Below, in pieces: positions 5,407 to 62,620 of a stretch of DNA of 64,000 nucleotides. Below the pieces are notes generated by a model. That model was not told where the DNA came from. It searched no databases and was given only the letters and a program-made list of their open reading frames with translations. How positions within the stretch are numbered: the stretch's first letter is position 1; each line of letters begins with the position of its first letter. The DNA is from Dehalococcoidia bacterium. GTDB taxonomy: Bacteria > Chloroflexota > Dehalococcoidia > SM23-28-2. The position numbers and the translations under genes were made by a program. The stretch spans positions 22,294 to 86,293 of the forward strand of contig DAOUEZ010000033.1 in NCBI GenBank assembly GCA_034429995.1. Reading direction: 5' to 3'.

Positions 5407-7692
5407 TCAATATCGCTGATCAAACCAATCGTAGACGACCCTCGATAACTGCGCGCCGAAGATATACGCCGCATACTCGGAGGGCATCGCCTGCGACAGG
5501 TAGGAGATTGCGTAGGCGATCTGCTTGCCTCCTCGTTCCATCGTCACGATTCCGACGTCATTGTAGACCCAGCCGTCCCAGTCGGGGTGGTAGCCGATCT
5601 TGTGAGCGACCCTTACCTCCGGCGGAAGAAAAAGGGGCAACACATAGTTCAACCCTGGCTTAATATCGAGGAGACGCTCAATGGTATAGGCGGTCCACTC
5701 GGCTGAGAACAGTTCCCCTCGATAGAGCTTGGCCAGTACCATGTTGGTTTCCCTGGCGGTCAGGATGTTCGGCCGCCAGTCTGGCCCCGGATAGAACGGC
5801 ACATAGCCATAAACAGAGTCTCTCATCCCCCAGCTCTGCATCAGCTCGTTGGCTCTTCCCACGCCTTCCTCCAGCGATCCTTTGATGCCCCGGACAAAGA
5901 CCGCCACCTCTGGCGGTGAGCTGTGGCCAATGCCAATCTTTATCCAGTAAGCCCAATCCTCGGGCTTCGCCCTCCCGGCTTCGAACTCCTCCACCGCCAC
6001 GAACAAGGCAAACATGTTGATGGTGCAGCCCGTCCTGTGCAGCGCATCGCCGTTGACGCAGATCGCTTCGCCCGTCTGAAGGTCGCTTACACAAATGGCC
6101 ACGTCGCCGTAGTAGTTGCGGATCCTGTCCTCCAGAACGGCCTGCAGGGCCAGGAATTCCTCCGATACCTCCACTTGGGGAGCTTCGGCCCCCGGCGCTT
6201 GCGGGGTTGGAATCAGAACGATCAGTGGCGAAAAGCCCCGCACGTAGGTCATAGTCGTAAGCTCAGGCCTTCCAGGGATAAACCGCTGCCAGGTGCCATC
6301 GACGGCCAAGCCATAAGCGACTGCGATCTGGTCACCCATTTCCCCTACAGCTACGGTGGCTTCCCTGCTCTCCCCCGAGTAGCATATGCTGTTCCACCCC
6401 GACGCCAGGACGAGATCACCGCCGGCCAGCGATGGCTCCTGCACCCAGGGGGCATAGTCGTCCGCCAAGACGAATAGCGCTTCATGGGGGCGAACAGTGC
6501 TAATGGTGCTCAAGCCCGGCCGGTCCGGGAACCAGCGGTCGTAGCGCCCATCAGGCCCCGGCCGGTAGACGGCCAAGACATTATCGGCGGCGCCTGCCAG
6601 GGCATCGGCCAGAGGCCGCTCATCGCCGAAGTAGCAAGCGTACGTCCAGCCAGGGACCAGCGTGACGCCGGGCATCCAGGAGACGATGGAGAGGCTGGCG
6701 CCGTCGGCGTGGGCCACGTAGACGCCGCCGCTGGCCAAGTCGACGTCAACCGCCGACAGGCCCCCGCCAAGGCCAACCGCCGAGGTCACTACGTTGGTAC
6801 GACCGTCAATAACCCACATGCGGTCGTCAGAGCTGCTACCCCCATAGATGCGACCGCTCGCGGAGTCGACCGCCAGGGCCTCGACCGAGCGGGGAACAGC
6901 GACAGAGTTGATAAGCGAGTTGTTGCTGGCGTCGATTACCAGAATAGTGCCGCCATCAGCGTCGCTCGCCTCCACAGCAGAGGTGGCAACGTACACTCGA
7001 TTGGAACCGCTATCCACCGCAACGTCCCAAGCCCCAACAGGCGAACCGCTAGCCAAGGGCAAGCTAGCAATCAGCAGGTTAGATACCCCATCCACCACCG
7101 CAAGATCGCCGCTTTCGCTACTGGCCACGTAGACGCGGCCCCGGTCGGGGTTCACCGCCACACCTGTCGGCAGATCGCCCACAGCCACGGTGCCGATGAC
7201 AAGATTGTGACGGCCATCGATGACCGAGACAGTGCCGCTACTGCGATTAGTAACGAAAACGCGACCCGTATTAGGGTCGACTGCCAGGTCCCAGGGTTCC
7301 TCGCCTGCAGGGAGAGTGGCGACGACCTCATTGCTTTCGCCATCTATCACCGTCACCTCGTTGCTCCCGCTGTTGGCGACGTAGACCCTGTTCGCCCTCG
7401 CATCGGCGGCTACGCCACGAGGAGCGCTACCTACCGGAATAGTAGCGATGACACTGCCGCTCGCACCGTCAATGACCGATACGTTCTCGCTCTCGGCGTT
7501 CGCCACGTAGATGCGGTTGGTGCTGGAGTTCACCGCCAGGGCCACGGGCTGGGAGCCATCGGGCTCCAGAGTGAGCGTGGTCACCAGGGCTGCGTCCTCG
7601 GGATAGGCAGGCTCGGCGGGGATAGCGGCCCCTACCACCAACAGCGCGAGGCCGACCAGAGCTAGCGCCGCAAACCGTGCTGCGAGTGCCAT
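5407..7692 (-). CDS. Secreted multi-domain protein. N-terminal signal peptide, ~6-7 YVTN-type beta-propeller repeats, and a C-terminal class-A beta-lactamase-like (PF13354-like) domain with a non-canonical active site.
   Basis: Repeated 'RVYVANSGSNEVTVIDG'-type blades. C-terminal 'VAHKIGYHPDWDGWVYNDVGIV' resembles the KTG/'AHKTG...NDxGIV' box of class A beta-lactamases. The S-x-x-K position reads 'GCTIN' (Cys for Ser, Asn for Lys). Confidence 0.55.
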   Translation of the reverse strand: MALAARFAALALVGLALLVVGAAIPAEPAYPEDAALVTTLTLEPDGSQPVALAVNSSTNRIYVANAESENVSVIDGASGSVIATIPVGSAPRGVAADARANRVYVANSGSNEVTVIDGESNEVVATLPAGEEPWDLAVDPNTGRVFVTNRSSGTVSVIDGRHNLVIGTVAVGDLPTGVAVNPDRGRVYVASSESGDLAVVDGVSNLLIASLPLASGSPVGAWDVAVDSGSNRVYVATSAVEASDADGGTILVIDASNNSLINSVAVPRSVEALAVDSASGRIYGGSSSDDRMWVIDGRTNVVTSAVGLGGGLSAVDVDLASGGVYVAHADGASLSIVSWMPGVTLVPGWTYACYFGDERPLADALAGAADNVLAVYRPGPDGRYDRWFPDRPGLSTISTVRPHEALFVLADDYAPWVQEPSLAGGDLVLASGWNSICYSGESREATVAVGEMGDQIAVAYGLAVDGTWQRFIPGRPELTTMTYVRGFSPLIVLIPTPQAPGAEAPQVEVSEEFLALQAVLEDRIRNYYGDVAICVSDLQTGEAICVNGDALHRTGCTINMFALFVAVEEFEAGRAKPEDWAYWIKIGIGHSSPPEVAVFVRGIKGSLEEGVGRANELMQSWGMRDSVYGYVPFYPGPDWRPNILTARETNMVLAKLYRGELFSAEWTAYTIERLLDIKPGLNYVLPLFLPPEVRVAHKIGYHPDWDGWVYNDVGIVTMERGGKQIAYAISYLSQAMPSEYAAYIFGAQLSRVVYDWFDQRY

Positions 7693-39365: not shown

Positions 39366-39446
39366 ACGCCGAGAGTCTGACCGGCGACGAGGCTCGCGAC
39401 GCCGAGGCCTGAGAAGAGGTCGGTGTTAGCGATGTGCTGGGCTGTG

Positions 39447-39583
39447 GGATCTGGAGGGCCGGGTGGGATTCGAACCCACGACTCCCAGCTTGTCAATCAG
39501 GACGTTGTTAGGCAATCAAGGCCGGCCCAAACAGCTCACCGCGTCAACCCTCCGGAGACGCACGACATTCTGGCACCCCACAG
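39447..39583 (-). repeat. Copy A of a four-member conserved noncoding element family. The minus-strand 3' end forms a tRNA-like T-arm and 7-bp acceptor ending CCA, but the body does not fold as a canonical tRNA.
   Basis: Minus strand reads '...GTGGGTTCGAATCCCACCCGGCCCTCCA'; 5' partner 'GGGCCGG' is present. Shares 'TTGTCAATCAGGRCG', 'GGCYRGCCCARAYAGCTSAS...GTCAACYCT' and 'TGGCACCCCACAG' blocks with copies C and D. Immediately 3' of the GT-C/PA14 gene. Confidence 0.5.
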
Positions 39584-39606
39584 CCCTCGGCGGAACCGCC
39601 GACGGC

Positions 39607-42571: not shown

Positions 42572-42597
42572 AGGAGCGCTGCTGAACGGAAACGCCT

Positions 42598-42720
42598 CCC
42601 GAGGGGCCCTTTTCCGTATCTGGAGTCTGGAGGGTCGGGGGGGATTCGAACCGACGACTCCTGCATTGAGAGTCAGGAGTTCTTTCGCTGAGTTAGCAAC
42701 TCAACGGCATCAACCGTCGC
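42598..42720 (-). repeat. Copy B of the conserved noncoding element family (tRNA-like T-arm/acceptor-CCA at the minus-strand 3' end). Shares a 3' tail with copy D. Ends in a 6-bp hairpin 'CTCCTG...CAGGAG'.
   Basis: Minus strand '...GGAGTCGTCGGTTCGAATCCCCCCCGACCCTCCAGACTCCAGATACGGAAAAGGGCCCC'. ~40-nt block nearly identical to copy A ('GGAGTCGTGGGTTCGAATCCCACCCGGCCCTCCAGA'). Confidence 0.5.
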
Positions 42721-43007
42721 CAGTGGGGACACGAGATGATGTAGCACTCGACCAAGCGAGCCCCGACGACCTGCTTGGAGGGAAGAAGGTCACCCCGAAA
42801 CGCAGGCCTAATTGTTAACCCCTTAGATTCAAAAATCGGGATGGATTTCGAGGGCATGCGGCCGGCGGCGGCCGAACCCTCACCCCAGGCGCTCGCCCAT
42901 CCGGTCCGCCGGGCTTAACCGCACCATGCGCTGCTTATTCCCCTTGCCATGGCGAACCTGAATGCGCTGGCTCTCGAAGTCTACGTCCTTGAGTCGAAGG
43001 CTGTCGC

Positions 43008-44231
43008 CTACAGGGTAAGCTCAACGCCGCTGAGGGAGAGTTCCTCCTCTGTGACCATCCTCAATGGGGGGGCGGCGCTGACATCCATTCCGGGCTCGTA
43101 CTTGAAGATGGGGGCGAGTTGCCTATTGAGCATGAAGATCAGGCGGGACAACGGGATCTCCACAGGACAGGCATCCTCGCACTGACCGCAGTTCACGCAG
43201 GAATCCATGACGTGTACGGCCCGGATCATGTGGAACATGGCGTCAGGCGGGATCTCGCCCCTGGGCACTACGCCTCTGTCTGCCTCCAGATAGCAGTCCT
43301 TGCAGTAGCAGATGGGGCAGGCGTCCCTACAGCCAAAGCACTTGGTGCACTGGCTGAACTGGCCGGAAGGTCCGAACCAGTAATCGAACCGCTCCTCAAG
43401 ACTCATCGCCTGGAACTCGCCGAAATCTCTCTCCTGCCACTGCCGCGCCAGTTCGGTGGCCGCCCTGTCCTGTGCTCTCCTCGATTCGAGGGCCTCGGCG
43501 CTCGGCTGCTCCACTTTGATGTGGCCGCCTTCGACCGCCCTGTCGATGAAGTCGGCTCCTCTCTCGGAACAGACCTCTATGAACGTGGCCTCCCTACCCT
43601 CTGCTCCCCACTTCCCGCAGGCTATATCCGCCATGGTCGGGATGTTGATGTCGCATCTGCGGCAGTTCTCCCTCCGCCCGAGCCCTTTGGCCTCCAGCTC
43701 TGCCAAATCCCTTTCTTTCTCGCTGCCGTCCCGCAGCCTTATCTTCAGCTTGTCGTCCTCGATGTCCTCACTGGCAACATCGAAGGGATCCACGCCGAAT
43801 TCCTCTTCCATCATCCGCTGGGCTACCACCGGACGCATGGTGCCGGTGCAGTTCAGGCCGATGAGGAGTACATTCTCAAGGTTGATCTGGTTGCGCTTGA
43901 CCAGCTCGATGATCGCCTTGGCGTCGCACGGCTTGCAAGTCACGGCTACCCTCAAGTCGGAAGCACCGTCGAGGAATTCCTTGAGGCAGCGGGCCATGTT
44001 GGGGGAAACGCAGTGCAACGCTCCTGCCGTCGCCGCTACCTCTTCAGGATCATCGATCAGCACAGGGATGCCATCATACCTGTTGCCATCTCTTGCCTTG
44101 ACGGCAAGCACGGCATCGACCTGGTTACTCTCCAGGGCAAACTTGAGGAGCGAGGTAACCGCACCCCCGCTTTCGGCCCTGTCCACTATTGCCGGGTCTG
44201 GGGACCAAGCCCAGTAGGTATCCCCCTTCAT
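43008..44231 (-). CDS. FrhB/FdhB-family (coenzyme F420 hydrogenase/dehydrogenase beta-like) subunit with C-terminal 2x[4Fe-4S] ferredoxin domain; formate dehydrogenase beta subunit.
   Basis: N-terminal FrhB_FdhB-like region. C-terminal 'CTKCFGCRDACPICYC...CVNCGQCEDACPVEI' cluster motifs. Immediately downstream of fdhA. Confidence 0.65.
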   Translation of the reverse strand: MKGDTYWAWSPDPAIVDRAESGGAVTSLLKFALESNQVDAVLAVKARDGNRYDGIPVLIDDPEEVAATAGALHCVSPNMARCLKEFLDGASDLRVAVTCKPCDAKAIIELVKRNQINLENVLLIGLNCTGTMRPVVAQRMMEEEFGVDPFDVASEDIEDDKLKIRLRDGSEKERDLAELEAKGLGRRENCRRCDINIPTMADIACGKWGAEGREATFIEVCSERGADFIDRAVEGGHIKVEQPSAEALESRRAQDRAATELARQWQERDFGEFQAMSLEERFDYWFGPSGQFSQCTKCFGCRDACPICYCKDCYLEADRGVVPRGEIPPDAMFHMIRAVHVMDSCVNCGQCEDACPVEIPLSRLIFMLNRQLAPIFKYEPGMDVSAAPPLRMVTEEELSLSGVELTL

Positions 44232-44233
44232 GC

Positions 44234-46258
44234 CTACACCTCTTCCTTGACGGCGCACACCTTGAACTCTGGCATCTTGCTTTTGGGATCAAGAGCGGGG
44301 TTGGTGAGGATGTTGGCGCATGACTCCGAGAAATGGAAGGGCACAAATATGGACCCTTGTGGCACACGGCCGGTCACCTTGGCGGTGACCTCTATCCTCC
44401 CTCGCCTTGTCTCCAGGGTGATCCGACTGCCGCTACTGATGCGCAACCTGGTGGCGTCCTCGGGGTTGATCTCGGCGTACGCTTCAGGCACCTCGCTGTT
44501 CAGCGTATCTGTCCTCCGGGTCATTGTCCCTGTGTGGTAATGAAAGAGATTCCTGCCGGTGATGAGCACGTCGGGATAGTCTGCGTCCGGCACTTCCGCC
44601 GGAGGCTTGTACTCCACCGCCTGAAAATGACCCAGCTTGTCAGGCGTGCCGAAGGCCTCAACGAACATGGTAGGAGTGCCTGGGTGGTCCTCGGAAGGGC
44701 AGGGCCACTGAATGCCCCCCGCCTTCTTCTCCAGTCTCTCGTAGGTGATCCCCTTGTATTGGGGGACGCAGCTCCTGATCTCTTCGAATATCTCTCCCGC
44801 CGAGGCATAGTTGAACTTGTCCTTGTAGCCCATCTTCTCCGCCACTCTGCAAATGATCCACCAGTCGGGCATGGCCTCGCCGGGAGGGTCGATGACCTTG
44901 TTGATCTTCTGCACCCTCCTGTCCACCCAGGCGTGGATGCCTTCTCTTTCTACCCAACAGGCAGCTGGCAGCACCACGTCGGCGTGCTTGGCTGTCTCGG
45001 TCAGGAATATGTCCTGAACCACGAAGAAGTCGAGGTTATCCAGAGCCCTCTTGACGTTCGTAGAGTCGGGGGCAGCCATGACGGGGTTTGTGCCCACTAG
45101 GTAGATAACTTTGCATTTGTGAATAATGTCCATGTAGGTAAGGCCGGGTTCAGTGGGTAGGTGCTCTACCCCCCAGGCGTTCTGGAAGAACTCGGCGGAT
45201 TCCTGGCCTACTTGCTTGAATCCGGGGTAAAAGACATTGACGCAGCCCATGTCCCCTGCGCCCTCACCGTTGATCTGCCCTCTCATGGGGTTCACACCGG
45301 TCCCCGGCTTGCCGATGTGCCCGGTCAGAAGGGCCAGGTCGGCGAGGGCCGCCACATTGTCTGAGCCGGTGGTGTGCTGAGTGATGCCTTCATCAAAGAG
45401 GATGCAGCCCCTCTCTGCCTTGGCGTAGGCGATAGCCGCCTCTTTGATCTTTTCCGCTGCCACGCCGCTGATATCTGCGGCCTGCTCAGGGGAGGTGGCG
45501 GACAGAGCAGCGCGAAGCTCATCGAACCCCGCAGTCCTCGTCTCAATGAACTCTTTGTTCTCAAGGCCCTCGGCAAGGATAGCGCTCATCATGCCGTTGA
45601 TGAGCGCTACATCCGTGCCCGCTTGCAGTTGCAGGTGGAGGTCGCCCAGGTAGCTCACGGTCACGGTCCTTCGGGGGTCTATGACGATGACCGTGGCCCC
45701 CTTCCTCTTGGCCCGAAGCACCTTCTTGGCGATCATGGGGAAGGTCTCTTTGATGTTGACGCCAGCGATGAGTATGCAGTCGGCCCGCTCGATGTCGAGC
45801 TGGGAGGTCTCCATGGTGCCCGAGCCCACCGTGGGCAGGAGGCCGGCCACCGACGCCGAGTGGCAGAACCTGGCGCAGTATTCGATGCTGTTGGTGCCCA
45901 TGATGACCCGGGCGAACTTCTGCAGGACGTAAGCTTCCTCGTTGGTGCCCTTGCCGGAGGCGATGGCACCGAAGGACTCCGGCGGAACCCCCTTCAGCTT
46001 CTCGGCGACGAGGCTCAGCGCCTCTTCCCAAGAAGCCTCCCTGAACGTCCCATTCTTTCGAATCAAGGGCTTCTTGAGCCGATCGTCACTGTAGAGGAAT
46101 TTGTAGGCATTTTTCCCCTTGGGACAGTTTGTCCCTTCGTTGACCGGGTGTTCCTTCCACGGTTCCTCGCCCACTATCCTCCCGTCTTTCAGTACGAGGT
46201 ACATTCCGCAGCCGCAACCGCAGTAGGGACATATCGTCGGCACATATTGCAGATTCAC
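44234..46258 (-). CDS. fdhA: Molybdopterin (bis-MGD) formate dehydrogenase catalytic subunit, Cys-type (no in-frame TGA).
   Basis: N-terminal 4Fe-4S 'CPYCGCGCG'. 'ARFCHSAS' active-site region with Cys. MopB and C-terminal molybdopterin dinucleotide-binding regions. GTG start overlaps the upstream stop (GTGA). Confidence 0.85.
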   Translation of the reverse strand: MNLQYVPTICPYCGCGCGMYLVLKDGRIVGEEPWKEHPVNEGTNCPKGKNAYKFLYSDDRLKKPLIRKNGTFREASWEEALSLVAEKLKGVPPESFGAIASGKGTNEEAYVLQKFARVIMGTNSIEYCARFCHSASVAGLLPTVGSGTMETSQLDIERADCILIAGVNIKETFPMIAKKVLRAKRKGATVIVIDPRRTVTVSYLGDLHLQLQAGTDVALINGMMSAILAEGLENKEFIETRTAGFDELRAALSATSPEQAADISGVAAEKIKEAAIAYAKAERGCILFDEGITQHTTGSDNVAALADLALLTGHIGKPGTGVNPMRGQINGEGAGDMGCVNVFYPGFKQVGQESAEFFQNAWGVEHLPTEPGLTYMDIIHKCKVIYLVGTNPVMAAPDSTNVKRALDNLDFFVVQDIFLTETAKHADVVLPAACWVEREGIHAWVDRRVQKINKVIDPPGEAMPDWWIICRVAEKMGYKDKFNYASAGEIFEEIRSCVPQYKGITYERLEKKAGGIQWPCPSEDHPGTPTMFVEAFGTPDKLGHFQAVEYKPPAEVPDADYPDVLITGRNLFHYHTGTMTRRTDTLNSEVPEAYAEINPEDATRLRISSGSRITLETRRGRIEVTAKVTGRVPQGSIFVPFHFSESCANILTNPALDPKSKMPEFKVCAVKEEV

Positions 46259-46710
46259 GATGCTGCCCTCCTGAATGGGCTCGGCCCGAGCTGCTTGAGG
46301 GTCTCGACGAAGCTAGTGACGGTTTCCACCACCTTCGGCCCGTCGGAGGTTGAGATCCACTCCAGCCTGAGCCTGTCGCCGCCGATTCCTACGGCCTCGA
46401 GGAAGGGCTTCAAGCCTACCACTCTCCTCCTGGCGCTCAGATTGCCGCTATGATAGTGGCAATCTCCCGGGTGACAGCCGCAGACCAGGACGCCATCTGC
46501 GCCCAGTGCGAACGCCTTGAGCACCAGCCGTTCGTCTACCCTGCCAGAGCACATCACCCTGACTATTCTCAGATTCGGTGGGTACTGCAATCGCGCTGTG
46601 CCTGCTACATCGGCCCCCGCGTAGGAGCACCAGTTGCAGAAGAACCCCACTATGGTTGGCTCAAACCCGTTCGTTCTTGCCTCAACGTCATCCATGACTA
46701 TGCCTTTCAC
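46255..46710 (-). CDS. MvhD-like (methyl-viologen-reducing hydrogenase delta subunit family) iron-sulfur electron-transfer protein.
   Basis: 'FFCNWCSYAGADVAG...RVMCSGR...LVCGCHPGDC' Cys pattern of MvhD/FlpD. Confidence 0.7.
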   Translation of the reverse strand: MKGIVMDDVEARTNGFEPTIVGFFCNWCSYAGADVAGTARLQYPPNLRIVRVMCSGRVDERLVLKAFALGADGVLVCGCHPGDCHYHSGNLSARRRVVGLKPFLEAVGIGGDRLRLEWISTSDGPKVVETVTSFVETLKQLGPSPFRRAAS

Positions 46711-46838
46711 ATCGACGCTGCTTGGTCAGTCTGACCCGCGTATTCAGGCCCAGACTTATGGACGTATGCCCATAACATCCTAGGCAAGCAGGCGCTAAGG
46801 GTCAAGCCTCTTCTGGAGGTTGTCAGGAAGGTATTCGC

Positions 46839-47606
46839 CTAGAGCTCCGGCCTCCGTCGGCGTGTCTCTGCGACATCGATAGGCGTCACTTCGGGCCTGG
46901 GAGCGTCGTAGACGGTGACTACATTCGGAAGCCTGCCGAACTCCTCCCGTATCGCAGCCATCTCGTCCGCCGTCAAAGGCTTGACCGGGCAGGGGCGTAG
47001 CGGAGTGTTGATCTGCACCTCATCGGGGGACAATCTGCTGGCGATGGCGGCCAATCTGCCTGCGGCCTCTCGGTTGGCCTCAACGAACATGATCTGGAGC
47101 GCCAGCTTTCCCTTGTACGTTGCCCTGAAGAGCTCGATGGCCTCCACGATCTCCGCCAGGGAGAAGCGGGCCACCGGCCTGTTGATCCGCCGGAACAGTT
47201 GCTCATCGGGGGCGTCCAGCTTGGCAACGACCACGTCGGCACAGGCCAGGTCCCGCCGCACATCTTCCCGTGCCATGAGCGAAGAGTTCGTCAAGACCGC
47301 GCTAGGCAGACCTAGCACATCCCGAGCCAATCGTAGGGCGTCCCCCAGGTTGCTGGCCAGGGTGGGTTCGCCCATTCCTGAGAAGGTAACGTAATCAGCC
47401 GCTATGTTCCTGGCTGCCTCTAGCTCGCGAGCCAGAACACTCAGAGCGACGAAGTCGGCCCGCACCGTCAGCCGCCGCGCCGTCCTACCCAACTGGCAGT
47501 AGATGCAATCGAAGGAGCAAGTCGTCCCGCCAGCGGGCAAAAGATCGACGCCGAGCGACCTTCCCAGTCGCCAGGACGGGACAGGGCCGTAGAGGATCGA
47601 ACCCAT
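46839..47606 (-). CDS. Radical SAM domain protein (CxxxCxxC); candidate maturation/activation factor for the downstream Fdh-MvhD module.
   Basis: 'CSFDCIYCQ' cluster motif 30 aa from the N-terminus. 'GMGEPTL' SAM-binding motif. 255 aa. Confidence 0.55.
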   Translation of the reverse strand: MGSILYGPVPSWRLGRSLGVDLLPAGGTTCSFDCIYCQLGRTARRLTVRADFVALSVLARELEAARNIAADYVTFSGMGEPTLASNLGDALRLARDVLGLPSAVLTNSSLMAREDVRRDLACADVVVAKLDAPDEQLFRRINRPVARFSLAEIVEAIELFRATYKGKLALQIMFVEANREAAGRLAAIASRLSPDEVQINTPLRPCPVKPLTADEMAAIREEFGRLPNVVTVYDAPRPEVTPIDVAETRRRRPEL

Positions 47607-48036
47607 TTCCTTACTTTATGGTCGCCTCAGGGGCCCTGCCCGCCGAGCCCGCGTCTACCGCCCGGCCCTCGCAAGGCAGGGCCAGCAGGCCGAACGGGGA
47701 GCACGCTTGCGCTATCGCAACGCAGGCAAGAACCTCTGCCGGCTTGAAGTAGGCCACCTGCGGCATAAAAGCCACCCGTTGCCACTTGGTTGATCTTGGC
47801 GCGGCGTAGTATCAAGCAAGTTATGAAACTATGTCCATAATCACTTTACCACCAAGCACATGCGTTGTCACCGGGTTTGGAGGCCGGAGAAATTATCGCT
47901 GCCACGTTGAGGCAGCTCGCGGAGGCTCCCGCTCGTGGCAGACCCTGTCAACTCGTTCTGACTGACCGAGTCGACGTTCCCTGAAGTATAATGACCCGCA
48001 GGACATGGCTGTCTTAGTGGCAGAAGGGGAGACCTC

Positions 48037-48687
48037 ATGCAGGCTCTCGACCTAGAGCAGGCCGAGCGCTATGAAGCTTGGTACACCACTCCTTTCGGTC
48101 GGCGAGCGGATCGAGTGGAGAAGGAGATGCTGCAAGGGCTCCTGGCAGACTTTGGTGAATCTCACTCCCTCCTTGAGGTGGGTTGCGGCACTGGGCACTT
48201 CACGGACTGGTTCGCTTCTCTGGGACTACCGGTGATGGGCCTCGACCGGCTTCCTTCTATGTTGACCTTCGCTCGAGACCGGCGGCCCGATCTCCCTTTC
48301 GTGCTGGCTGACGTCGCCCATCTCCCGTTCGGCGAGGCGGCCTTCGATGTCGTGGCCTTTGTCACGGTACTCGAGTTCTTGGACGCCCCTGAGGCAGCGT
48401 TGCGGGAAGCCGAGCGGGTGGCCCGCCACGGGCTGATCCTGGTGAGTCTCAATCGCCTCAGCCCGGTAGCTGTGTGGCGCCGGCTTCGGAGGGCGGCCTC
48501 CTATCGCCGCGCCCGCTTCCTCTCACCTGGCCAACTGGAGCGCCTGGTTCGCAATTCCCTGGCATCCCGACCGATGACGATCCGCTGGCGCACAGGCCTC
48601 TACCCTATGCACTGGCTGGATCAATGCACGGCTCTCCCCTTTGGTGCCTTGGTCGCCCTGAGCGTTCGATTTGAGGAAGGAGGCTGA
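48037..48687 (+). CDS. Class I SAM-dependent methyltransferase.
   Basis: 'LLEVGCGTGHFT' motif I. Acidic motif II 'VLADVAHLPF'. Confidence 0.7.
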   Translation: MQALDLEQAERYEAWYTTPFGRRADRVEKEMLQGLLADFGESHSLLEVGCGTGHFTDWFASLGLPVMGLDRLPSMLTFARDRRPDLPFVLADVAHLPFGEAAFDVVAFVTVLEFLDAPEAALREAERVARHGLILVSLNRLSPVAVWRRLRRAASYRRARFLSPGQLERLVRNSLASRPMTIRWRTGLYPMHWLDQCTALPFGALVALSVRFEEGG

Positions 48688-48690
48688 AGC

Positions 48691-48942
48691 ATGGAGGTGG
48701 CAGCACAGGTTAGCCTGTATCCCCTGCGCCAACCGGGGCTGTCCTCGGCGATCGAGCGCGCCCTTGCTGTCTTCAGGGAGCACGAACTGACAGTCAGCCC
48801 TGGCTCCATGAGCACTGTGGTGTCGGGGGACTATGACAGGCTGTTTGATGCCCTCAAACAGGCATTCCGGCAGGCGGCGGAGCAGGGAGAGACAGTGATG
48901 GTAGTCACCCTTTCCAACGCTTGTCCCATCCCCGGCAGTTGA
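48691..48942 (+). CDS. MTH1187/YkoF-like (DUF77) small ligand-binding protein.
   Basis: 83 aa. 'VSLYPLRQP...SSAIERALAVFREHELTVSPGSMSTVVSGD' follows the MTH1187 beta-alpha-beta-beta-alpha-beta pattern. 4 nt after the methyltransferase stop. Confidence 0.45.
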   Translation: MEVAAQVSLYPLRQPGLSSAIERALAVFREHELTVSPGSMSTVVSGDYDRLFDALKQAFRQAAEQGETVMVVTLSNACPIPGS

Positions 48943-49071
48943 GGCCGGCTTCCATCCAAGAGGTGTGTGCCATGCGACCCATCTGGGATTATCGGCCCTT
49001 GACCACTGGCCAGTTTACGGCTCGGCGATGGTTGGATAGCTTGGGGGGCCGCAGGTCTTGCGCGCTCGTGC

Positions 49072-50715
49072 TCACTCCAGCACCGCGCCCTTTGCGGCCG
49101 AGCTCACCAGCTTGACGTAGCGCCGCATGAAACCGGACGGGATCTCCCGTTCCACGGGCTTCCAGCCCTTCAGGCGGTTCCTGATTTCCTCGTCGTTCAG
49201 CTTCACCTCGAGCTTCCTGGCCGGGATATCAATGAAAATCTCGTCCCCGTCCCTCACGGCGGCAATGGGCCCGCCGACATAGGCCTCAGAGGAGACATGG
49301 CCAATGCAGGGACCGGCCGTGGCGCCTGAAAACCTACCGTCGGTGATCAGGGCCACGCGCCTGAAGCCAGCCAACTCCAATCCCAGAGTCACCGCCAGGG
49401 TCTCCGCCATCCCGGGGCCGCCCTTGGGCCCTTCGTTCCGGATCACGACTACCTCCCCCTCCTGGATAGTCCTTTCCCGGATGGCCTTCAGGCAGTCGTG
49501 CTCCGACTCGAAGACGCGCGCCTTCCCGGAGAAGACAAGCATATCCTTGGCGACAGCCGATTGCTTCACTACAGCGCCCTCCGGCGCCAGGTTCCCCGTT
49601 AGAATGACCGTACTCCCCTCCGGCATATGGGCATTCGCCTTGTCAGGAATGATCGTCTCATTCAGGATAACAGCCCCGTTGATGATATCACCGGTGGTCT
49701 TACCGGTGACGGTGAGGGCGTCGAGGTGGAGATCCTCTGCCAGCCGCCTCATTACCGCGGGAATGCCCCCGGCCATGTAGAGGTCGGTGACGCCATAAGG
49801 CCCGTTGGGCGATATGGCGCAGAGGGTGGGGATTCTCTTGTTGAAGTCGTTGAAGACCTTCAGCGGGAGGTCGAAGCCGACCTCATGAGCCAGAGCCGGC
49901 AAGTGAAGGGTGGAATTCGTCGAGCCGCCGATGGCCAGGTCTACCATGACCGCGTTCTCGATGGCCTTGGGAGTCAGAATCTTGTCCGCTGTGAGCTCCT
50001 CTTCCACCATCTCCACGATCCGCTTTCCCGCCATCCGAGCGAAAAGGAGCTTCTCCACATGATAGGCAGGGACGTTCGCCGAACGGGGCAGGGAGAGGCC
50101 CAACGCCTCGGTGAGGCACTGCATGGTGTTGGCGGTTCCCATCAGCTCACACGCACCGCAGGTTGCGGGCGTGGCCGTCGCGAGCTTGTCCCCCAGGTCC
50201 TCGTAAGAGTCGCGGTCGACGCTCCCCTTAAAGGTGTTCTTGAAGCGGATGCTCCATGCGCTGGGACCGCCCGTGATGAAGATGGCGGGGAGATTCAGCC
50301 GGGCCGCCGCCATCAGCATCCCAGGGACGATCTTGTCGCAGCCGGCAATGAACACGACACCGTCGTACATCATGCTTCGCACGTGGGTTTCGACGATATC
50401 CGCAATCAGGTCCCGCTGGGCCAGGACAAACCGCATCCCCTCATGCCCCTCGGTGATCCCGTCGCAGGGGGCTGGCACGCTGAACTCGAAGGGGATGCCC
50501 CCAGCAGCATGCACCCCTTCCCTCACCCGCTGGGCGATGGTGTCCAGGTGCATATGGCCCGGGTTGATTTCCGTCTGAGAATTGGCGCTGGCGATGATGG
50601 GCTTCTGCTTCCCCTCCTCGATATCGATCCCCGTACCCTGGAGAATGCACTTGCGGACTAAGCTGATAGGGAAGTCTTTGTCATCAAAAATAAGATTACT
50701 CTTGGGTTTCTTCAC
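49072..50715 (-). CDS. IlvD/EDD-family dehydratase (short type; sugar-acid or dihydroxy-acid dehydratase).
   Basis: 'PCDGITEGHEGM' and 'CDKIVPGMLMAAARLNLP' Fe-S cluster ligand regions. 547 aa. Confidence 0.8.
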   Translation of the reverse strand: MKKPKSNLIFDDKDFPISLVRKCILQGTGIDIEEGKQKPIIASANSQTEINPGHMHLDTIAQRVREGVHAAGGIPFEFSVPAPCDGITEGHEGMRFVLAQRDLIADIVETHVRSMMYDGVVFIAGCDKIVPGMLMAAARLNLPAIFITGGPSAWSIRFKNTFKGSVDRDSYEDLGDKLATATPATCGACELMGTANTMQCLTEALGLSLPRSANVPAYHVEKLLFARMAGKRIVEMVEEELTADKILTPKAIENAVMVDLAIGGSTNSTLHLPALAHEVGFDLPLKVFNDFNKRIPTLCAISPNGPYGVTDLYMAGGIPAVMRRLAEDLHLDALTVTGKTTGDIINGAVILNETIIPDKANAHMPEGSTVILTGNLAPEGAVVKQSAVAKDMLVFSGKARVFESEHDCLKAIRERTIQEGEVVVIRNEGPKGGPGMAETLAVTLGLELAGFRRVALITDGRFSGATAGPCIGHVSSEAYVGGPIAAVRDGDEIFIDIPARKLEVKLNDEEIRNRLKGWKPVEREIPSGFMRRYVKLVSSAAKGAVLE

Positions 50716-51174
50716 AACGGCCTCCTGCTCAAACGCTTATGAACACCTTCCCGTCGCCATTGACATCACCCACAGCCACTGACCGCCCAAAGTAGGCGTC
50801 TACCTGGGGGTTAGGGATATCCTAAGTGAAGATTGGGCTATGATTCCAATCCCAATGCATTGCTCCATGGACGTCTCTGTGAGATCTCCTCATCGGAAGA
50901 GAGCAAACCTAGCATGAAGGAATCGACACACTACGCTTTCACGTGGAGAGAGCGGCTGAGCGGTCTTATCAAGGCAGCGAGCCGGGCAAGATCGTTCATG
51001 GTCCTGGATTCGACTTATGAGTCATAGGCAAGAATAGCACATTAGGACAGAGGCCGGGTTTGCAGATGTCGACAACATTCGCTGCACGACATTAGCGCCG
51101 GAGCCAAACAGGTAGAGAGCCTGCCTCAGAAGCAGAAAATCATCGGTCGGCGATCAGTGCCGTCAGGCGACCCG

Positions 51175-51299
51175 GATTGTCAATCAGGACGTGCTGGCCA
51201 GATGGATCATGCGGGCGGGTACCCCACAGCCTCGTGGCTAGCCCAAATAGCTCAGCACGTCAACCCTCCAGATATGGCTAACATTTTGGCACCCCACAG
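51175..51299 (-). repeat. Copy C of the conserved noncoding element family; lacks the tRNA-like T-arm portion. Sits at the edge of a low-GC island.
   Basis: Contains 'ttgtcaatcaggacg', 'ggctagcccaaatagctcagcacgtcaaccctcc' and 'ttggcaccccacag' blocks shared with A and D. Confidence 0.45.
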
Positions 51300-62410: not shown

Positions 62411-62620
62411 GGCCCCCAAGGAGGAACGCACCGTGAGGGGGCCTTTTCCGTATCTAGAGCCTGGAGAGCGGGATGGGTTTCGAACGCGTCACTGCCGAAT
62501 TGTCAATCAGGGCGTGATGGCCGCAGGGACCCCGTGGGCGGTAGCCCGCAGCCTCAAGGCTGGCCCAGATACCTGAGCCTGTCAACTCTTCAGATACAGA
62601 TGAGGTCTTGGCACGCGGCG
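62411..62620 (-). repeat. Copy D of the conserved noncoding element family, including a stable GC hairpin (62411-62446, 'GGCCCCC...GGGGGCC' + TTTT on the plus strand) and a degenerate T-arm/acceptor-CCA.
   Basis: Minus strand '...GTGACGCGTTCGAAACCCATCCCGCTCTCCAGGCTCTAGATACGGAAAAGGCCCCC' is shared with copy B. Core 'ttgtcaatcagggcg' and the 'ggctggcccagatacctgagcctgtcaactct' block are shared with A and C. Confidence 0.45.

Follow-up and report, generated by a model that had tools for sequence, protein, structure and literature searches.

The window analyzed here is a 64-kb stretch of a sediment-metagenome contig (JGI) from a Dehalococcoidia bacterium, in which four intergenic loci, A (39447 to 39583), B (42598 to 42720), C (51175 to 51299), and D (62411 to 62620), had been grouped by an initial annotation into a four-copy family of conserved elements with a tRNA-like 3' end. 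All four are present, all on the minus strand, and Pfam confirmed the gene neighbors that had been named, with a hisH-like GATase, a PMT_2+PA14 protein, a MalK-type ABC ATPase, an IlvD/Edd protein, and a Peripla_BP_6 protein. Every copy has a minus-strand gene downstream, at a distance of 200 to 460 nt from element to start codon that includes decayed DNA, and the units are spaced by 3 to 11 kb, with operons of ordinary metabolic genes in the intervals. The repeats are real, but the blocks thought to be common to all four loci occur in A, C, and D and not in B. Block CGYCCTGATTGACAA has three matches in the window against 0.11 expected (A, 39490-39504; C, 51177-51191; D, 62500-62514) and the 31-nt block GRGTTGAC..TGGGCYRGCC also has three (A, C, and D), against 0 expected, while block TGGCACCCCACAG (CTGTGGGGTGCCA) is intact only in A and C and is degenerate in D. 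Both TTGAC motifs read in the same direction, as direct and not inverted repeats. What A, C, and D have in common is a module of about 130 nt, designated M1; B, which lacks the first two blocks, has in common with the other loci its tRNA-like 3' part and, with D, about 30 nt that lie 3' of the CCA (CCAGATACGGAAAAGG). The real family consists of three copies and one partial relative, not of four equals (Table 1).

Table 1. Features of the four loci and of the DNA between C and B (positions in the window)
Feature	Position	Strand	Basis
Copy A, module M1, internally shortened (TGTGGGG to CCTGATTGACAA)	39490-39582	-	Blocks; nhmmer 63 bits, E=3e-18; sequence read
Copy A, tRNA-Lys(UUU)-like 3' half	39452-39489	-	33/33 identity to L015:265
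Copy A, 3' flank ATCCCACAGC	39441-39450	-	Read directly
Copy B, flank after CCA common to B and D (GACTCCAGATACGGAAAAGGGCCCCTC...), with a hairpin within	42596-42627	-	Sequence comparison
Copy B, pseudo-tRNA; tRNA-like only from anticodon arm to CCA, T-arm degenerate	42628-42706	-	Homologous to ARAGORN pseudo-calls in L022, L025, L030
Copy B, decayed tRNA 3' part and flank (tail i), TCGTCGGGGCTCGCTTGG...CCCCACTGGCG	42707-42769	-	Contiguous with M3 in L013, L022, L007, L030
Putative attR core CCTTCTTCCCTCCAAGCAGG, resembling a tRNA-Gly(UCC) anticodon arm	42770-42789	-	Alignment to L020 and L030 junctions and to genuine tRNA-Gly; breakpoint versus L013, L022
Remnant of integrase-proximal arm	42790-42882	-	89% identity over 73 nt to L020 and L030 arms
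Tyrosine-integrase pseudogene	42883-43008	-	Translation; Pfam Phage_integrase E=4.5e-5
Inserted genomic island, about 8.3 kb	42790-51119	-	Ends by comparison with uninterrupted L013, L022
Copy C, proposed left arm (P') of island, CTCTCTACCTGTTTGGCTCC...CAGCGAATGTTG	51073-51119	-	Tail shared with L011, L029
Copy C, modules M2 and M3	51120-51170	-	Alignment of relatives
M3 of copy C, putative attL core TTCTGCTTCTGAGGCAGG, decayed tRNA-Gly-like anticodon arm	51137-51120	-	Comparison with L013, L022
Copy C, full-length M1	51171-51298	-	nhmmer 194 bits
Arm-repeat motif ATCTGGAGGGTTGAC in M1 of C	51259-51273	-	Motif match
Copy D, flank after CCA, common to B	62433-62461	-	Sequence comparison
Copy D, decayed tRNA-like 3' part (..GACGCGTTCGAAACCCATCCCGCTCTCCA), fused directly to M1	62462-62499	-	Sequence read
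Copy D, M1, 5' end degenerate	62495-62620	-	nhmmer 85 bits
Arm-repeat motif in M1 of D, 1 mismatch	62581-62595	-	Motif match

A T-arm, an acceptor strand with a matching partner, and a CCA had been seen in A, B, and D. In A, this description holds: the T-arm is canonical (GTGGG TTCGAAT CCCAC, 39479-39463) and is followed by CCGGCCC, T, and CCA (39462-39452), and the 7-nt acceptor partner GGGCCGG is found at 39528-39522, within block 3, an unrelated conserved block. In B and D, the same parts are degenerate, and in C the T-arm is absent, as had been noticed. In A, neither a D-arm (G18 G19) nor an anticodon arm can be formed from the 42 nt that separate GGGCCGG from the T-arm, which bears out the earlier remark that D and anticodon arms could not be built. 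ARAGORN called 0 tRNA and 0 tmRNA genes in the whole window, and Rfam gave nothing there at gathering thresholds and no tRNA match at E<=10 on A and B; in E-value mode, A has T-arm-level or mascRNA-like matches only, all below threshold. A functional tRNA gene is rejected on these results, as is tmRNA, whose model RF00023 matches just 18 nt of the T-arm with 12.6 bits against a 47-bit threshold. An archaeal split or intron-bearing tRNA does not fit a Dehalococcoidia host and decaying tRNA parts. Rfam searches of the window and of its relatives likewise returned no known RNA family above threshold, the sole tRNA match below it being in relative L009.

To place the loci in a wider context, we rely on relatives from two pattern scans, one of reference genomes, which yielded one real relative (L005, in the Dehalococcoidia MAG CP070630.1), and one of sediment metagenomes, which yielded 26 loci, about 23 of them real. 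Because a locus had to contain three M1 blocks to fit the scan pattern, the invariance of these blocks is in part an effect of ascertainment; a profile search added extra partial copies. Alignment of the relatives reveals a modular unit, in which M1 (TGTGGGG to CCTGATTGACAATCCGGG; ..TTGACAATCCGGG) is followed by M2, of about 30 nt, and by M3 (CTCCTGCTTCTCAGGCAGG), and after the GGCAGG of M3 the sequences continue in a few differing classes. In a profile search of all sequence collected, the units cluster within 10 kb in L015, L016, L017, L019, L020, L021, L022, L025, and L030, a cluster being defined as two units, or one unit and a tRNA-Gly locus, per contig within that distance. The genes next to the units are a mixed set without relation to each other, and those flanking several copies are of mobile-element or defense type, encoding an IS transposase, IrrE/HTH, JAB-ThiF, or OLD-like nuclease proteins.

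Comparison with genuine tRNA genes demonstrates, at the level of sequence, that the 3' parts of the units derive from tRNAs. Genuine tRNA-Gly(UCC) genes are found at L015:11-85 and L019:25-99, the only contigs in which an intact tRNA-Gly lies beside the units. In L009, L020 (9270-9490), and L021 (644-817), M1 or its first 36 nt is joined to a tRNA-Gly 3' part, which extends from either the D stem or the anticodon arm as far as CCA and continues into the 3' flank and terminator of the tRNA itself, and the tRNA-Gly(UCC) 3' part is recovered with 1 to 8 mismatches in 49 in L019, L020, L021, L025, and L030. Elsewhere, M3 is a decayed version of the tRNA-Gly anticodon arm, and the stretch of L009 equivalent to M2/M3 of C scores 25.5 bits against the Rfam tRNA model, just below threshold. 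The second source is probably a tRNA-Lys-like gene. The 3' half of A (GAGTCGTGGGTTCGAATCCCACCCGGCCCTCCA), composed of the 3' strand of the anticodon stem, a 5-nt variable loop, the T-arm, and the acceptor 3' strand CCGGCCC with T and CCA, is identical at 33 of 33 positions to the tRNA-Lys(UUU)-like 3' half (GAGTCGTGGGTTCGAATCCCACCCGGCCC) in L015, differs by 1 to 3 mismatches from the copies in L005 (position 1506), L019, L025, and L030, and by 3 in 33 from the pseudo-tRNA of B. The 5' parts of the Lys-like pieces are not tRNA-like, though ARAGORN weakly calls some, and the tRNA-derived parts of B, C, and D are decayed. The pieces are tRNA-derived in their 3' parts only, which is why D and anticodon arms cannot be constructed. 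In D, this part is fused to M1 in the same architecture as in A and in L016/L023. The arm unit described below for L020 is joined, in L005, to a tRNA-Lys-like 3' half, which suggests that one arm family serves two tRNA targets.

The junctions are also linked to a tyrosine integrase, as judged from gene order in the window and its relatives. Directly upstream of B, after the stop codon of an FdhB-like gene, lies a remnant of 42 codons (..LKDVDFESQRIQVRHGKGNKQRMVRLSPADRMGERLG*), an integrase pseudogene from which the 5' part and a stretch of the interior are missing (..LKDVDFESQRIQVRHGKGNKQRMVR|LSPADRMGERLG*). It matches an intact 354-aa tyrosine recombinase encoded at L020:575-1639, in which a Pfam search recognized Phage_integrase (8e-37) and a SAM-like N-terminal domain and no arm-binding domain. 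Further homologues, intact or partial, are present in L029 and L030, and the same arm adjoins the integrase gene in L020, L029, and L030. The order in L020 and L030 is integrase gene, then an arm of about 270 nt, then a tRNA-Gly 3' half with its natural flank; the window keeps the final 90 nt or so of this arm. The L020 arm carries three direct repeats (TTYTGAATCTRRRGSSTTRRCAA) spaced by 92 and 91 nt. One copy of the repeat, ATCTAAGGGGTTAAC, is left in the arm remnant of B (42814-42828), and within the window the motif otherwise occurs only in M1 of C and of D (3 matches in all, B included, against 0.46 expected); it is also present in M1 of many relatives. The likeness between M1 and the arm is limited to this one motif of about 15 to 25 nt and to collinearity. 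M1 may act, or may once have acted, as a protein-binding arm, and we read M1 of copy A as a probable arm-type (P-arm-like) end of an integrative element.

The DNA between C and B has the structure of an inserted island. In L013 and L022, the left part of C and the right part of B are joined without a gap, in the order M1-M2-M3-TCGTCGGGGCTCGCTTGG...-pseudo-tRNA, which implies that C and B are two halves of one split unit. The breakpoints in the window fall exactly after GGCAGG, where the left part of C stops at 51120 and the right part of B resumes with TCGTCGG at 42769, and an imperfect core of about 19 nt is found at both island ends (51137-51120 and 42789-42770). The insertion is therefore flanked by direct repeats when set against the unoccupied sites of L013 and L022, which come from related organisms and not from the population of the window, where the island is present in all contigs that include the flanking methyltransferase. 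By this alignment, C is the predicted attL and B the predicted attR of a single island of about 8.3 kb, which ends with the integrase pseudogene, then the arm, then the core, and which carries genes for an IlvD/Edd dehydratase and for YkoF-like, methyltransferase, radical SAM, FlpD, FdhA-like, and FdhB-like proteins. At the other end, the tail of C, of about 47 nt, is found in full in L011 and L029 and by its end in L015, L021, and L028, after which the sequences diverge; L029 has an integrase gene about 1 kb beyond this tail. The M3 relic and tail i correspond to native DNA downstream of the genuine tRNA-Gly in L015 and L030, which suggests that the island targeted an old copy of the tRNA-Gly core. 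The lack of a T-arm in C would follow from the splitting of that copy by the island, the T-arm side now being at B. The decayed tails of L013 and B contain a segment, ..GATCCCAGCTGG.., to which the 3' flank of A is related.

The mechanism by which integrases target tRNA genes is established: the attP site holds the 3' part of the target tRNA beside an arm with direct repeats. We consider it likely that the four loci are relics of att-site junctions left by tyrosine-integrase islands that accreted at tRNA targets. An incoming island would bring its attP, with a copy of the tRNA 3' part next to the direct-repeat arm, and strand exchange in the anticodon-arm region would leave, at the integrase end, a junction of arm and partial tRNA (anticodon arm to CCA), which looks tRNA-like at its 3' end only. 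M1 would be a surviving variant of the integrase-proximal arm, and A and D would be junctions of arm and tRNA 3' half. C and B together would represent one older composite, M1-M2-M3-decayed tRNA tail-pseudo-tRNA, whose tRNA-Gly-like core later recombined with the island of about 8.3 kb, which split the composite into attL (C) and attR (B). This order of events is our inference, and the units presumably have no present function. Of the three readings first offered for the family, namely att-like scars derived from tRNAs, small RNAs with tRNA-like ends, and cis-regulatory leaders, it is the first that gains support, from the tRNA-Gly and tRNA-Lys 3' ends, the integrase pseudogene at B, and the absence of the C-B insertion from L013 and L022; the other two do not fare well, as discussed below. 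The occurrence of four copies in 23 kb had seemed unusual under any of these readings, whereas repeated integration at regenerated cores (accretion) at an integration hot spot would be expected to produce several units in the same orientation over such a distance.

Some observations count against the att model. Neither the window nor a further 10 kb upstream of D (about 74 kb in all) contains an intact target tRNA, the empty site is deduced from relatives that are more distant, the integrase has no recognized arm-binding domain, metabolic genes lie between the units, and M1 resembles the arm by one motif. The model does not account for a perfect 10-bp inverted repeat around A, formed by CCCACAGCCC (39439-39448) and GGGCTGTGGG at the 5' end of A (39577-39586). 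Also, the 5' boundary of M1 at TGTGGGG is sharp to the nucleotide, with unrelated upstream flanks in more than 20 copies, and in L019 and L025 it truncates an RRM-type gene after 13 codons; such an edge beside unrelated genes is more naturally explained by transposition. The unit itself might then be a small nonautonomous mobile element, either MITE-like or a mini-element mobilized in trans by an integrase, that spread to new intergenic sites and carried a tRNA-like core along, and its single orientation in the window, like the fact that, in a crude count based on ORFs, about 13 of 16 copies immediately follow a gene of the same direction, would fit this reading. We nevertheless hold it to be unlikely. 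The inverted repeat is clear only in A, where no target-site duplication or direct repeat of the flanks was seen on reading the sequence, and this also speaks against the suggestion that the copies are simply IS or MITE ends, for which every copy would be expected to have terminal inverted repeats and target-site duplications. Moreover, the mosaic 3' ends coincide with tRNA-derived breakpoints, the copies are not dispersed and gather at tRNA-Gly loci, and no transposase is associated with the unit, those nearby being insertions into it or unrelated IS elements. It is the sharp edge of M1, the inverted repeat of A, the missing target tRNA, and the lack of an empty site from the same population that keep this as a minority reading.

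Readings in which the unit is expressed have less in their favor. M1 and the tRNA-like end could form a functional RNA, such as a 3'-UTR or small RNA with a tRNA-like end on which RNase P, RNase Z, or the CCA-adding enzyme would act, like that of mascRNA, or M1 could be a regulatory RNA of the integrase. Copy A does fold as an acceptor stem and T-arm, although the mascRNA model gives it 20 bits (E=0.08), far below threshold; the units usually follow a co-directional gene; M1 lies directly upstream of the integrase leader in L005; and one hairpin alternates between TGTGGG/CCCGCA and TGTAGG/CCTACA among copies. A four-helix structure built by hand is 89% paired over 23 M1 copies. Against this, the joint folding that had been proposed as a check uncovered no significant covariation: the covariation term of RNAalifold on 16 copies is only -0.65 kcal/mol, and in the 23-copy set 64 of 500 shuffles reach the observed score, with a single cell changed on both sides of a pair. 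Folded one at a time, the sequences are not more stable than their shuffled counterparts (z from +0.9 to -2), Rfam has no matching family, and the tRNA-like parts have decayed differently, which argues against tRNA-like selection, so that we regard a small RNA with a tRNA-like end as very improbable. As for cis-regulatory leaders, riboswitch- or T-box-like, of the downstream transporter and dehydratase genes, the position of each window copy upstream of a minus-strand gene is what suggested them. This idea is close to refuted: in related loci, the downstream genes lie on either strand and belong to unrelated families (acyl-CoA dehydrogenase, phosphorylase, membrane protein, OLD-like nuclease, typA), so that no constant position before related genes is seen, decayed DNA fills the gap to the start codon, neither an Rfam match nor significant covariation was obtained, and C and B belong together as the halves of a single unit.

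Several other candidates were rejected. No usable -10 element accompanies the TTGAC(A) boxes, and a promoter scan found no promoter at the elements. The reading frame that ends at the TGA in GTTGAC is short or broken in most copies and is not a conserved ORF, its longer versions being confined to copies into which an upstream gene reads. A Tn7-like end was considered for TGTGGGGTGCCAAAATG, which we take to resemble a Tn7 terminus; there is no 5-bp duplication, no tns gene, and no matching other end. The defining sequence features of a group IIC intron are absent, and an integron attC site (R''/R' RYYYAAC...GTTRRRY), with its short promoterless cassettes, agrees neither with the direct, not inverted, TTGAC motifs nor with a spacing of 3 to 11 kb filled by operons, as judged by reading and not with an attC model; Rfam gave no match to either. 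Scans of viral contigs, which bear on a phage origin, gave no match.

The att model places the window among known systems. Junctions of this type are familiar from the att sites of tyrosine integrases that target tRNA genes in P4-like phages, pSAM2, SLP1, and ICEs, and accretion is known from CIMEs related to ICESt1/3 of Streptococcus thermophilus. The window resembles them in the partial tRNA that extends from anticodon arm to CCA, in the integrase gene adjoining one junction, in the direct-repeat arm between integrase gene and core, and in a regenerated core that permits further integration; as in ICE/CIME accretion, derivatives without integrase stay flanked by att sites. It differs in that its integrase is a pseudogene, and in that one arm family appears joined to two tRNA cores and the arm module is kept as a multicopy repeat. 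Closer in host, high-plasticity regions of Dehalococcoides mccartyi reportedly contain tandem islands at the tmRNA gene (ssrA-GIs, said to have been described by McMurdie et al. in 2011). Both hosts belong to one bacterial class, and the islands discussed here would likewise insert site-specifically where a gene of the tRNA type ends, accumulate in tandem with a common orientation, and each leave a direct repeat of the 3' end of that gene. In contrast to the ssrA-GIs, they target tRNA-Gly(UCC) and a tRNA-Lys-like gene instead of ssrA, their integrase is a XerC/D-type tyrosine recombinase, the unit measures 130 to 430 nt including M1 versus about 20 nt for the ssrA repeat, and the cargo is metabolic and does not consist of reductive dehalogenases. 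Our literature search found nothing specific on tRNA-associated integrase islands of Dehalococcoidia.

Likenesses to RNAs and to dispersed repeats go less far. Copy A shares with mascRNA, the tRNA-like domain of tmRNA, and YrlA an acceptor stem, a canonical T-arm, and CCA without D and anticodon arms, but its scores are far below thresholds, its 5' acceptor partner lies in an unrelated block, and the other copies are degenerate. With BOX, ERIC, and Correia/MITE elements the units share a multicopy, intergenic, modular, and mosaic nature, sharp boundaries, and deletion derivatives; unlike in those elements, inverted repeats and target-site duplications are inconsistent, the boundaries are tRNA-derived cores, and there is a link to an integrase. 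On the favored reading, the elements are genomic scars of a familiar type and do not represent a novel RNA, and no new biological mechanism is implied.

The main value of the analysis lies in annotation, since the units mark a region of genomic plasticity in uncultured sediment Dehalococcoidia. The set of Fdh-like, FlpD, radical-SAM, and IlvD-like genes on the 8.3-kb island is identified as horizontally inserted, and tRNA-Gly(UCC) and the tRNA-Lys-like gene appear to be integration hot spots in this group, which extends the picture of tandem ssrA islands in Dehalococcoides. The case also illustrates how a tRNA-like end that does not fold as a tRNA can originate, namely, from an att site that copies only the 3' half of the tRNA. 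A quite different outcome, to which we attach little weight, is that M1 with its tRNA-like 3' end is not dead DNA and serves as a portable integration cassette or is expressed as a tRNA-like RNA. Were the cassette reading true, M1 would regenerate attachment cores for two different tRNA-specific integrases, the unit might be transcribed from the upstream gene and then cut by RNase P or tailed with CCA, and Dehalococcoidia would possess a lineage-specific device for building arrays of islands. For the att-junction reading that we favor, a practical use is that M1 could mark island boundaries in related MAGs. Two minor observations concern the surroundings of the units: a terminator-like hairpin lies on the plus strand at 42594-42607, next to B, and an IS element (rve_3 and HTH_32) interrupts M1 in L030 and, apparently, in L016 as well.

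In locus L005, from a complete Dehalococcoidia MAG, M1 (the ~130-nt module that opens elements A, C and D of the window) is followed directly by ~85 nt that are homologous to an integrase gene of the L020 type, covering its leader and start; in contig L020 this gene encodes an intact tyrosine recombinase. The similarity ends after these ~85 nt, and the stretch looks like a deleted integrase. Judged from this arrangement, which suggests a former association, M1 would once have been sited just upstream of the integrase gene.

On the opposite side, the 5' boundary of M1 cuts a gene for an RRM-type RNA-binding protein after 13 codons, the reading frame giving MAHKLYVGGLSFE up to the boundary and CGAAKPHPYLGG from there to a stop codon (L019; L025 has the same flank). 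In four further contigs (L021, L009, L013 and L027), a small ORF, MATVTREQLQKLIEQPK...SFDRS, runs into M1 and stops at the TGA of GTTGAC, its C-terminus CGVPKCYPYLEG being supplied by this read-through; the 250 nt 5' of M1 are near-identical in all four, and the tails past M3, the anticodon-arm-like core, are different. In two different contigs, L030 and apparently L016, M1 is itself interrupted by an IS element (rve_3 integrase core and HTH_32 transposase), whose position, ~nt 72 of M1, is identical in both. Copy A, its CCA included, is enclosed by a perfect 10-bp inverted repeat, GGGCTGTGGG and CCCACAGCCC, with no direct repeat flanking it. Four candidate relatives, L006 (Angustibacter MAG), L008, L012 and L031, were rejected as unrelated sequences that matched the degenerate search patterns by chance, and all analyses were performed without them.

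Given that the compact redox cluster, the dehydratase and two methyltransferases all lie inside the window's island, the redox module was apparently gained as its cargo. On the minus strand, the interval that separates C from the start codon of the IlvD-like gene translates to ..VAVGDVNGDGKVF.., which by eye looks like an FG-GAP/VCBS repeat fragment and may be a pseudogene remnant within the left end of the island. Elsewhere, the gene content between two junctions in L020 looks like a defence island, and the tabulated genes that flank copies in L026, L018 and L022 resemble defence genes as judged from their translations.

Locations of the features discussed
Feature	Location	Remark
M1 and integrase-like stretch	L005:7084-7227	
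Cut RRM-type gene	L019:~910-950	
Small ORF entering M1	L021:~6070-6250	
IS element in M1	L030:3715-4781; L016:~1808	
Inverted repeat, copy A	window 39439-39448; 39577-39586	
FdhA-like/FdhB-like/FlpD/radical-SAM cluster, IlvD/Edd-type dehydratase, two methyltransferases	window 42790-51119	inside island
FG-GAP/VCBS-like stretch	window 50740-50800 (minus)	
HTH+IrrE (M78) gene, Prok-JAB + ThiF (E1-like) pair	L020:5625-8982	between two tRNA-Gly-derived junctions, adjoining IS transposase
OLD-like ATPase/nuclease, large SMC-like ATPase, helicase-nuclease	L026:816-2567; L018:3-1991; L022:522-3035	among flanking genes; translations by eye
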